A stretch of 64,000 nucleotides of DNA, taken from contig CAVRCF010000001.1 in the NCBI GenBank assembly GCA_963719505.1, forward strand, positions 608,001 through 672,000. The letters are read 5' to 3'. The translations under genes and the position numbers were made by a program. The notes under the pieces were generated by a model. That model ran no database searches and was not told the origin of the DNA. It saw only the letters and a list, made by a program, of their open reading frames with translations. Below, piece after piece: positions 58,711 to 60,833 of the stretch (within the stretch, counting starts at the first letter, position 1; every line of letters starts with the position of its first letter). The stretch is from Halobacteriovoraceae bacterium. Lineage in GTDB: Bacteria; Bdellovibrionota; Bacteriovoracia; Bacteriovoracales; Bacteriovoracaceae.

Positions 58711-59322
58711 ATGATTGCAATTCTAGACATTTTAATATTTTTTAGCTTTTTCACTTTGCTTGCCGGACTAAACTTCAGGATGGTGCAACAAGTTAAAAAC
58801 ATTCCTATCACCGAAGCCAATATTTTAATTTTAATTTTTCTTTTTGGGCTCGATCTTGTGTTCGTTGCGATGACTGCGCGCTTTTTTGAGCTAGGAGTTG
58901 ACCTCAATTGGGCCGTCATTTTGATGACTTGCTTTGGTTTGCTATCTCTTAGTTCGATCACAATAGGCGTTATGGTAAAAATGGGTTTGGCCACAGGTAA
59001 AAAGATGAGAACTTTGCTCAGGTTACCTTTGATTGGTGCGCTTGTGGGCTTTTATCTAAAAGATGAGAGAGCACTTTATCTTTTTGTTGGTATTGAGTTA
59101 ATATTAACAATATATTTTTTCATGATGAAAGATGAATACAATTACGTTTTTCGCCAGCAGATCAAAGGGCTTTATGGTTTTCTGCTGTTCGCTATACTAC
59201 TTAAAAATAATTTCTTGGCCTACTCACTTATCGGGCTGTTTATCTTCGTGCTCATGAAAAATCAGATTATTAATCAAGTAAAGCTCAAACTTGTGTTGGA
59301 GAAGAGTCAAAATGAAATTTAA
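58711..59322 (+). CDS. Hypothetical multi-pass membrane protein
   Basis: About 7 hydrophobic segments. Confidence 0.75.
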   Translation: MIAILDILIFFSFFTLLAGLNFRMVQQVKNIPITEANILILIFLFGLDLVFVAMTARFFELGVDLNWAVILMTCFGLLSLSSITIGVMVKMGLATGKKMRTLLRLPLIGALVGFYLKDERALYLFVGIELILTIYFFMMKDEYNYVFRQQIKGLYGFLLFAILLKNNFLAYSLIGLFIFVLMKNQIINQVKLKLVLEKSQNEI

Positions 59323-60340
59323 ATTATACTTCCTAATATTTACTCTCTTTGGTTGTGCTCAAGTCACTAGCCTTAACCTTCAAAAGCACCAATTTGGTCA
59401 AATCCCAACAAAAATTGTGTGGATACAAGTTGCGGGTTTTGAAGAGGAGCATCTCGCAACCCTAAAATTTGATTCAAACGCTAAAGCTGAAACTTTATCT
59501 TTTGAAAAGTTTCTCTGTTTGGGTAAAGCTTGGGAGTATAACCTTTACGATATTCGTCCTTCTTCGAGCTCTAGTTTTATAGGACAGTTGACGGGAGAAA
59601 AAAATATTAAAAATACTTGTGAAGACTATCAGAAGACACCCATTTGGAGTCTTATTTCTAAAAATAGTTATAAAGTCGGTGCTTTCGAAAATGGGGCAGG
59701 TAAAGATCAGAGCCTAGAGGCAGCAAAAGAGTGTGGAGAAGATGGTAAAAATTTCTTAGAGGATCTTACTCTTTGGAAAATGGCAAAAGCTCCGAGCAAG
59801 TCTAATTCCTTTTTCCACGTAAACGAAAAATCTATTTTTGATAAAGATACAACTTACTATGATAGAAGTTGTCTCACAGGAGAGTGTTACTCAAACCTGT
59901 CCCAAAATATTAAGTCAGTTTTTAGTCAATTTTCTCGAAAGTCTGATCGATATTTATTTGTGGTGAGAGACTTTAAGTACCAGAATGATTTAAAAAGTAG
60001 AAATTATTCTAAGTATAAAACAAGTTTGAGTGAACTCGAGAAAACGGTAGACTATTTTTTGGATCTCGCAAAAGAGAGTAAAAACATGCTCATCCTTTTA
60101 ACCAGCGCAAGCTCTCAAGGTTTAGACTTTCCAAAACGTGGTAATCAGTGGAAAGAATTTGAAAAAAGTGGGCGTTATCTAAACCAGAAAAAGTCTAAGC
60201 TTATAAGTACAGTTATGGCCTCTGGAGCAAGAGCAGAAAACTTTTGTGGTATTTACAATCAGAGTGAAATTTTGACAAGAGTCTTTAGCGGCTCGAAACA
60301 GCAGGGGCTTGAACTTGCCATCATCAACCCTTTTGATTAG
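59312..60340 (+). CDS. Lipoprotein with degenerate alkaline-phosphatase-like fold
   Basis: Lipobox LFGC; KIVWIQVAGF, LTG.K, LILLTS and FCGIYNQSEI line up with AP core motifs. Confidence 0.6.
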   Translation: MKFKLYFLIFTLFGCAQVTSLNLQKHQFGQIPTKIVWIQVAGFEEEHLATLKFDSNAKAETLSFEKFLCLGKAWEYNLYDIRPSSSSSFIGQLTGEKNIKNTCEDYQKTPIWSLISKNSYKVGAFENGAGKDQSLEAAKECGEDGKNFLEDLTLWKMAKAPSKSNSFFHVNEKSIFDKDTTYYDRSCLTGECYSNLSQNIKSVFSQFSRKSDRYLFVVRDFKYQNDLKSRNYSKYKTSLSELEKTVDYFLDLAKESKNMLILLTSASSQGLDFPKRGNQWKEFEKSGRYLNQKKSKLISTVMASGARAENFCGIYNQSEILTRVFSGSKQQGLELAIINPFD

Positions 60341-60348
60341 GAAATAAT

Positions 60349-60375
60349 TTAAGTTTTAGAACGATTGTCCGATAA
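60349..60375 (+). promoter_or_regulatory. sigma28 (FliA)-type promoter
   Basis: TTAAGTTT-N11-TCCGATAA versus extended consensus TAAAGTTT-N11-GCCGATAA. Confidence 0.65.
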
Positions 60376-60381
60376 GATTAG

Positions 60382-60478
60382 TATCTTTCTTAAATGGAAA
60401 GAGAACCACTTCGTGAGAGACAGGTTTCAACAACACAAAAAGGTTAAAATGCCCCATTGGAATCAATGGGGCTTTTTG
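60382..60478 (+). ncRNA. Candidate small RNA (sigma28 promoter to intrinsic terminator)
   Basis: Promoter immediately upstream, terminator at the 3' end, no RBS-supported ORF inside. Confidence 0.45.
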
Positions 60479-60480
60479 TT
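60451..60480 (+). terminator. Intrinsic terminator
   Basis: GCCCCATTG-GAAT-CAATGGGGC followed by TTTTTGTT. Confidence 0.85.
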
Positions 60481-60483
60481 TAT

Positions 60484-60499
60484 TGGCACGAAGATTGCT
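60484..60499 (+). promoter_or_regulatory. sigma54 (RpoN) -24/-12 promoter
   Basis: TGGCACG-AAGA-TTGCT, exact match to TGGCACG-N4-TTGCW. Confidence 0.75.
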
Positions 60500-60581
60500 T
60501 CTAGAGAGGTATAAAGCTTAGTTTAACGGCCCCAATTGGGAAATAACTGTATAAAGCTTTTACACTTTAGGGAGTACTGTC

Positions 60582-60833
60582 ATGAAGTTAGCCATTCAAC
60601 TATTCCTACTTTCTTCAGCCTTTTCTAGTGCTTTTGCGTCCAATAAACTAGTGGAAATGATTCGAGTCAATCAAATAGAAAAAACGAATGAATACATTGA
60701 GCTAAATAAAAGGAGCATCACTCAGAACTCCGCAAAAGAGGCTTTGGAATATATAAATCTCAACTCACTTCAGTCAGATTCATTTAAAAATATTGAAATT
60801 ATTCAGCGCCTGCGAGAAATTGCATTCAACTAA
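60582..60833 (+). CDS. Small secreted hypothetical protein
   Basis: GGGAG RBS; signal peptide ending AFA; 83 aa. Confidence 0.7.
   Translation: MKLAIQLFLLSSAFSSAFASNKLVEMIRVNQIEKTNEYIELNKRSITQNSAKEALEYINLNSLQSDSFKNIEIIQRLREIAFN

Follow-up and report, generated by a model that had tools for sequence, protein, structure and literature searches.

The forward-strand sequence between positions 60382 and 60481 has the organization of a gene for an RNA of ~100 nt, and we give about an even chance to the reading that this RNA is a sigma28-dependent, trans-acting sRNA made together with the motility regulon. At the sequence level, the unit combines a promoter and a terminator of its own with a length between 50 and 300 nt and no conserved ORF. 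It is present once in its genome and recurs, in the same gene order, in one congeneric genome (G002).

The window analyzed here is the whole stretch of 64,000 nt, corresponding to C1:608001-672000 of genome G000 (3.69 Mb, 36.8% G+C, 5 contigs, 83.5% complete). When we checked the sequence, all the elements named in the preliminary description of the locus were found where it had placed them. The locus is composed of the following features:

59291-60340, + strand: upstream ORF of 349 aa with a lipoprotein-like signal sequence, second gene of a two-gene operon, without Pfam match; stop codon at 60338-60340
60349-60356, + strand: sigma28-type -35 element TTAAGTTT, beginning 8 nt past the stop codon of the upstream ORF
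60368-60375, + strand: sigma28-type -10 element TCCGATAA, after an 11-nt spacer from TTAAGTTT
60382-60481, + strand: predicted RNA of ~100 nt, its start placed by promoter geometry and its 3' end by the T-tract
60384-60402, + strand: hairpin SL1 of the predicted fold, with a 7-bp stem and the loop UAAAU (TCTTTCT/UAAAU/GGAAAGA)
60403-60427, + strand: hairpin SL2 of the predicted fold, with the outer stem AACC/GGUU (GAACC...GGTTT) and the conserved loop CACUU..GAGA.A
60428-60444, + strand: A/C-rich linker CAACAACACAAAAAGGU, predicted to be single-stranded (unpaired probabilities mostly 0.6-0.9), candidate pairing region
60445-60481, + strand: intrinsic terminator module, made of an A-tract, the stem-loop at 60451-60472 (9-bp stem with 6 G-C pairs, 4-nt loop) and T5GT3
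60484-60499, + strand: sigma54 promoter TGGCACGAAGATTGCT of the downstream gene, a perfect TGGCAC-N5-TTGCT directly past the T-tract
60582-60833, + strand: ORF of 83 aa with a signal peptide, likely a sigma54-dependent gene, ~80 nt beyond the sigma54 promoter, without Pfam match

The letters of the terminator are GCCCCATTG-GAAT-CAATGGGGC (60451-60472), followed by TTTTTGTTT. On the far side of the unit, a GMC oxidoreductase gene is convergent with the 83-aa ORF.

Sigma28-type promoter, fold and terminator

We assigned to the sigma28 class those promoters with a -35 element TAAAG or TTAAG and a -10 element (G)CCGATA(A) that lie 15-16 nt apart (consensus from PMC3627812), for which a FliA-dependent start of transcription would be expected 6-8 nt past the -10 element. 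The sequence TTAAG-N15-CCGATAA at 60349-60375 has this form, and differs at 2 positions from the enterobacterial consensus TAAAGTTT-N11-GCCGATAA. No other site in the 64-kb window comes within 2 mismatches of that consensus, and 6 sites in all come within 3 mismatches (1.29 expected). Genome-wide, 23 sites have up to 2 mismatches, and 16 of them fall in intergenic DNA, which covers ~10.5% of the genome according to a crude ORF map built from the longest ORFs of at least 90 aa.

The spacing between the two elements is a further indication that the motif is in use. Searched genome-wide, T[TA]AAG-N15-CCGATA is found at 13 intergenic and 5 coding positions, and T[TA]AAG-N16-CCGATA at 14 and 6 (27 intergenic and 11 coding matches overall). 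The control spacings of 12-14 and 17-19 nt sum to 4 intergenic and 30 coding matches, with an average of ~0.7 intergenic matches each, as compared to 13-14 at N15 and N16; chance would account for about 1 in 20 of the intergenic N15 matches. Of the 27 intergenic matches at N15 and N16, 25 stand 4-160 nt ahead of an ORF, and hence these matches are for the most part real promoters. Judged from this placement, T[TA]AAG-N15/16-CCGATA is clearly a working promoter class in this genome. The preliminary description had proposed a near-consensus FliA promoter, and TTAAGTTT-N11-TCCGATAA is confirmed as such, with a spacing class enriched in intergenic DNA. None of the 27 except the site at 60349-60375 has a terminator after it in place of an ORF.

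Boxes of the form TTAAG/TAAAG...TCGATA also precede two flagellin genes. The fliA homologue of G000 (C3:303559-304238) is broken up over 3 or more ORFs, and a genuine disruption would mean that the sigma28 regulon no longer functions. One flagellin gene is similarly found in two ORF pieces (C5:672024-672438). The concurrence of a split fliA and a split flagellin gene in an assembly that is 83.5% complete in 5 contigs suggests assembly indel errors instead of pseudogenes, and the frame breaks of fliA are probably such indels.

The RNA is predicted to fold at -29 kcal/mol with a z of -3.29, a value that none of 200 shuffled sequences equalled, and its counterpart in G002, which retains SL1, SL2 and the terminator, has a z of -2.27. 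The local hairpins followed by an unpaired stretch that had been noticed in the sequence were recovered in this predicted fold as SL1, SL2 and the A/C-rich segment at 60428-60444. The sequence at 60451-60472 has the G+C-rich stem-loop and the T-tract of an intrinsic terminator. Its 9-bp stem was rightly described as GC-rich, 6 of the 9 pairs being G-C with the T-tract after them, and folds at -17.8 kcal/mol when the A/U extension is included. A generic terminator scan of the 3-kb region returned 2 terminators as compared to 2.1 expected, and hence is without enrichment.

Judged from its sequence, the unit lacks coding capacity. The 17-codon ORF at 60394-60447 is present and lacks a Shine-Dalgarno (SD) sequence, as first reported, and its frame is not conserved in G002, where indels shift it into a version of 36 codons that crosses the terminator. 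More generally, G000 and G002 differ by indels within both internal ORFs, which alter the frame, and the stop codons differ as well. In a cmscan against Rfam, the best matches at the locus had E values of 0.23-1.7, far below the gathering scores, and the scan of the whole window returned zero matches at gathering scores. This agrees with the proposal that the RNA is an uncharacterized one. The c-di-GMP-I riboswitch, the core of which had been judged missing, was absent among the cmscan matches up to E 10 as well as at gathering scores, and the unit is accordingly not classed as a merRNA.

The interpretation given in the preliminary description is supported in part, and in one respect it went too far. 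It considered the RNA as stand-alone, which is too strong a term for a unit whose promoter begins 8 nt past the stop codon of an operon, whose terminator is shared and whose T-tract abuts a perfect sigma54 promoter. We found no other terminator for the upstream operon between 60340 and 60451. Because its one terminator is common to both transcripts, the RNA sequence would also be the 3'UTR of the upstream operon. The locus therefore has the layout of a 3'UTR-type sRNA with its own promoter, close to the stop codon, and a terminator in common with the mRNA. The distance between the upstream stop codon and the terminator is 111 nt, as compared to a median of 28 nt among 249 genes followed by a comparable terminator.

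Conservation of the unit in a congeneric genome

When the intergenic region was aligned with BLASTN to 40 related genomes, only the congeneric G002 was matched (E 1.5e-15), and the next-best match (E 0.0015) spans the terminator alone. The order of elements in G002 is the same, with the lipoprotein gene followed by the RNA unit, the sigma54 promoter and a 94-aa homologue of the 83-aa ORF. The lipoprotein gene has homologues in all 61 family genomes that were searched. Between G000 and G002 its protein is 64% identical, and nucleotide identity amounts to 45% for third codon positions and 38% for four-fold-type sites. The alignment of the RNA between the two genomes has 74 identical columns out of 106. 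Identity to G002 is distributed along the locus as follows:

Stop codon to -10 box: 8/27 (30%)
-10 box: 7/8 (88%), with ACCGATAA in G002
SL1: 14/19 columns, with a stem of 5 bp and an unchanged loop in G002
SL2: 19/25 columns, with 4 of the 5 outer pairs invariant
Linker: 7/17 columns, with a 5-nt deletion in G002 and only CAAAAAGG in common
Terminator module: 30/37 columns, with one A-U to G-C double change
Sigma54 promoter: 14/18 columns
5'UTR of the small ORF: 32/70 (46%)

Since the -10 box, both hairpins and the terminator are 74-88% identical, as compared to 30-46% in the spacers, and synonymous sites are saturated, the RNA unit, as far as this alignment can tell, is under purifying selection. 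The -35 element of G002 is TAAAG and lies one base further from the -10 box. The resulting TAAAG-N16-CCGATA corresponds to the other of the two spacings that are enriched in G000.

Paired cells make up 87.8% in G000 and G002 together and 29-67% when the partners are slid. A BLASTN search and a covariation analysis had been put forward as checks of the locus. The former returned one conserved homologue, in G002, but the latter detected a single double change, in the terminator, which was equalled by 255 of 500 shuffles; covariation has no power here because only two sequences are available. A covariance model built on these two sequences and run on 151 family genomes assigned 129 bits to G000, 100 bits to G002 and at most 42 bits to all others, and the best 10 other matches are plain terminators. 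No copy of the unit was found in G001 and G003, the other two species of the genus (assemblies 87% and 82% complete, respectively), and an unfiltered run of the model on the locus in each of them returned nothing. A scan with the 19-base conserved pattern hit 7 loci in the genome collection and 23 in metagenomes, and only the G002 contig scored with the covariance model. A lack of conservation in relatives, which had been named among the joint grounds to give up the proposal, is thus not what these searches revealed, since G002 has a syntenic copy, although conservation is limited to two genomes.

Homologues of the downstream 83-aa ORF occur in G002 and in G003. The G003 homologue is an ankyrin-repeat protein of 272 aa, and the 83-aa protein of G000 and the 94-aa protein of G002 match only its C-terminal part. 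Both homologues are preceded by a sigma54 promoter, TGGCCC-N5-TTGCT in G002 and TGGCAT-N5-TTGCA in G003. The G003 homologue also has a terminator, and is without a sigma28 element and any SL1- or SL2-like sequence. The G000 genome encodes rpoN and has 15 intergenic matches to TGGCAC-N5-TTGC, this promoter being one of them, and 3 coding matches, as compared to a total of 1 intergenic match at six other spacings. The small ORF has in its 5'UTR a direct repeat GTATAAAGCTT (60509-60519 and 60549-60559, 40 nt apart), which flanks a GGCCCCAATTGGG hairpin and is only loosely conserved in G002. Several sigma54 promoters of this genome (among them C1:707951, C4:271458, C4:148260 and C5:1054740) are directly followed by a similar box, TCATATAG(T/G)GTAAG, possibly an element of the initially transcribed sequence, or of regulation, that they have in common.

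Alternative readings of the locus

The proximity of the sigma54 promoter raises the question of whether there is a separate RNA gene at all. The sequence could simply be the long 3'UTR and the terminator of the lipoprotein operon, in which case SL1 and SL2 would be DNA sites, for example sigma54 activator sequences, and the sigma28 match would be fortuitous or vestigial. In its favor, the operon has no other terminator. As DNA, both hairpins are palindromic, and they lie 57-115 bp ahead of the perfect sigma54 promoter at 60484-60499, which is conserved in G002 and G003. This is a typical distance for activators, so that they could be activator-binding DNA, and the coordinated changes in the two arms of SL1 would fit a palindromic protein site equally well. 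Also in its favor, fliA looks broken in the assembly. A further point against the sRNA reading is that G002 has its -35 element one base off, in a spacer with 8 of 27 identical positions. We nevertheless consider the DNA-site reading unlikely. Fortuitous promoters of this class are rare, given the ~0.7 intergenic matches per control spacing as opposed to 13-14 at N15 and N16, and the -10 box retains 7 of its 8 positions within surroundings that are 30% identical. Moreover, none of the 9-mers of SL1 and SL2 recurs upstream of 15 other sigma54 promoters, and the G003 homologue has both a sigma54 promoter and a terminator with nothing similar to SL1 or SL2. Finally, the SL1 and SL2 sequences of G000 contain G-U pairs, which can form only in RNA of the + strand.

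A different question is how the unit came into being. Directly after the lipoprotein gene, G003, G013, G078 and G019 carry a gene that encodes a membrane-anchored coiled-coil protein without Pfam match. The coiled-coil gene is present in 71 of the 151 family genomes, and a search of the family genomes did not find it in G000, G001 and G002. Out of the 30 best coiled-coil homologues, 14 have CGA[TC]A 25-62 nt ahead of the start codon, and several others have near variants of it. In G003 (contig C44), the small-ORF homologue has its terminator and sigma54 promoter ~4.5 kb away from the lipoprotein gene, the interval being occupied by the coiled-coil gene (~984 aa), a small ORF and a gene for a cNMP-binding protein. 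The corresponding distance in G000, from the lipoprotein stop codon to the sigma54 promoter, is about 140-144 nt, and in G002 the interval likewise contains only the RNA unit. The sRNA probably arose through the loss, by deletion in the G000/G002 lineage, of a sigma28-controlled coiled-coil gene, which left its promoter beside the terminator ahead of the sigma54 gene. The evidence for this deletion is one of position only. Local alignments of the RNA body with the upstream regions of 14 of the 30 coiled-coil homologues, and with the 3' end of the cNMP-binding gene of G003, were within the shuffle background, and therefore the similarities seen by eye (CTTAATTGAG and TTTAAA.CAAA) are not evidence. 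A tentative and more specific scenario, which we consider possible, is that a deletion of ~4.4 kb (by comparison with G003), which removed the coiled-coil gene with the genes next to it, joined the orphan sigma28 promoter to the terminator, and that the junction of ~70 nt was recruited as a motility or attack-phase sRNA and has been selected since then in two species.

The same observations, namely the coiled-coil gene after the lipoprotein gene in the four genomes and its apparent loss from G000 and G002, the CGA[TC]A motif ahead of 14 of the 30 homologues and the interval of ~4.5 kb in G003 versus 144 nt in G000, can be read in another way. The unit could be a transcribed evolutionary relic, in which the orphan promoter of the lost gene drives transcription up to the next terminator and yields an RNA without a function of its own. 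However, identity between the two species is 75% in SL1 and SL2 together and 88% in the -10 box, as compared to 30-46% in the spacers and 38% at saturated synonymous sites. A functionless junction that remains conserved while synonymous sites are saturated is quite unlikely.

The unit could also be the sigma28-driven leader of the gene for the 83-aa secreted protein, similar to MotR, in which the majority of transcripts would end at the terminator and regulated or leaky read-through would add a sigma28 input. The RNA and the small ORF are indeed adjacent in both genomes that carry the RNA, and the layout is that of E. coli MotR and motAB, where read-through of the terminator is reported to yield the mRNA (PMC10578931). 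Several features make this possibility improbable. The terminator is strong (-17.8 kcal/mol) and the gene has a perfect sigma54 promoter of its own past it; the G003 homologue has this promoter without the sigma28 element or the RNA body; and the resulting 5'UTR would measure 207 nt, as opposed to the 4-160 nt at the 25 other sigma28 sites. When we blocked the 3' arm of the terminator in silico in G000 and G002, only weak pairings were formed, and SL1 and SL2 were unaltered. With no antiterminator fold in either species, a riboswitch or attenuator leader is unsupported; the unit has neither an Rfam riboswitch, aptamer or leader match nor mutually exclusive folds in G000 and G002.

That the locus encodes a small protein, either from the 17-codon ORF or from the ATG at 60448 after an AAGG box, is hardly credible: both ATGs are kept in G002 and AAAGGTTAAAATG resembles an SD sequence with a start codon, but the first frame is broken by indels, lacks an SD sequence and runs through the terminator in its 36-codon version of G002, and the second crosses the terminator, differs between species in its register to the sigma54 promoter, would have no stop codon on a terminated transcript, and starts from an AAAATG that is found also in the terminator module of G003.

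Known sigma28-linked sRNAs and proposed mode of action

Our preferred reading of the locus as a sigma28-dependent sRNA has several precedents. In the predator Bdellovibrio bacteriovorus HD100, three attack-phase sRNAs (APsRNA3, APsRNA6 and one more) are reported with a strong FliA motif, and the sizes in the table are 98-655 nt (Karunker et al. 2013, PMC3627812). The same study reports TTAAG-N16-CCGATA in 92 of 140 attack-phase promoters of this species. These sRNAs belong to the same broad group of predators, and similarly to what is predicted for the G000 unit they are short structured RNAs with a FliA motif. The consensus TTAAG-N16-CCGATA of B. bacteriovorus is matched by TTAAG-N15-CCGATA in G000 and TAAAG-N16-CCGATA in G002. 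The expression of the B. bacteriovorus sRNAs was measured, whereas the G000 RNA is a prediction from sequence. Searches of Rfam and of 151 family genomes found no sequence relationship for the G000 unit beyond G002, and the B. bacteriovorus sRNAs were compared to it by description only.

UhpU, DapZ and MicL share the layout of a 3'UTR-type sRNA with its own promoter. Together with MotR, FliX and FlgO, UhpU is one of the E. coli precedents of sigma28-linked sRNAs (PMC10578931). It resembles the G000 unit in that its sigma28 promoter lies at the 3' end of an unrelated gene, its terminator is shared with the mRNA and it can arise from the 3'UTR. The two differ because the promoter of UhpU is inside the coding sequence of uhpT, whereas that of G000 is 8 nt past a stop codon, and because UhpU is bound by Hfq, whereas we found no Hfq in G000; there is no sequence similarity between them. 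MotR is an RNA of ~95 nt with a sigma28 promoter inside flhC and is the 5'UTR of motA (PMC10578931). In common with the G000 unit, it has a sigma28 promoter, a length of ~95-100 nt and a terminator just before the next gene, with possible read-through, but the next gene in G000 has its own sigma54 promoter and is not flagellar by any annotation.

In Campylobacter jejuni, CJnc170 (FlmR) depends on FliA and CJnc230 (FlmE) on RpoN (PMC11187230). This pair of sRNAs is linked to the sigma28 and sigma54 tiers of motility, and in G000 too a sigma28 unit lies directly beside a sigma54 unit. Unlike in C. jejuni, the sigma54 unit of G000 is a protein gene, and a link to a flagellar target was not found among the leaders that we scanned. 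In terms of its organization, the G000 unit probably resembles the known sigma28-driven sRNAs in kind, with no sequence shared with curated families.

The sequence analysis shows promoter, terminator, absence of coding capacity and purifying selection, and from these features we infer how the RNA might be transcribed, where its ends would lie and how it could act in trans on putative targets. RNA polymerase with sigma28 (FliA) would transcribe it from ~60382, and the transcript would end at the intrinsic terminator, with the T-tract extending to ~60481. The transcript of the upstream lipoprotein operon would use the same terminator, as in other 3'UTR-type sRNAs with their own promoter. The RNA would then act in trans, being produced together with the flagellar and motility regulon, which in predators is the 'attack-phase' regulon. 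Most likely, it would do so by base pairing via the loop of SL2, the A/C-rich linker or both. The putative link to the attack phase is carried over by analogy from B. bacteriovorus (PMC3627812), and hence from a different lineage.

We looked for pairing partners of the RNA in three ways. Pairing with the downstream 5'UTR was equalled by 17% of the shuffles in G000 and by 94% in G002. Among the leaders of 34 genes of the sigma28 regulon and flagellins, the best pairing, with one of three segments of the RNA, had a P-value of ~0.05 before correction for three tests; it was inside a coding sequence and was rejected. A scan for duplexes between the whole RNA body and 3506 start regions returned unrealistic full-length duplexes and was discarded. 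The linker, which is the putative seed, is accessible in the predicted fold and has the lowest conservation within the RNA (7/17). We did not find Hfq (PF17209) in the G000 assembly, which is 83.5% complete. Since Hfq-independent sRNAs exist, this absence does not exclude a function as sRNA.

If expressed, the RNA would be a lineage-specific sRNA that joins the sigma28 regulon of a little-studied and apparently uncultured marine group related to Bdellovibrio. To our knowledge, post-transcriptional control in this group is almost unknown, beyond the RNA-seq catalogue of B. bacteriovorus HD100. As it probably sits at a deletion junction, the unit would be a convenient case for studying the formation of new sRNA genes from orphaned promoters. 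Its practical value is limited, because the unit is known from two genomes, has no predicted target and belongs to an organism that is not experimentally tractable at present.

CsrA is present in G000 and its gene adjoins a flagellar locus. A role of the RNA as a CsrA sponge was considered and dropped, since it has a single GGA, which lies inside the stem of SL1 and not in a loop. The csrA gene (C1:257718-257873) is located ~1 kb downstream of a gene of the flagellin family (FlgL-like) at C1:256351, an arrangement that we take to be typical of FliW-CsrA systems.
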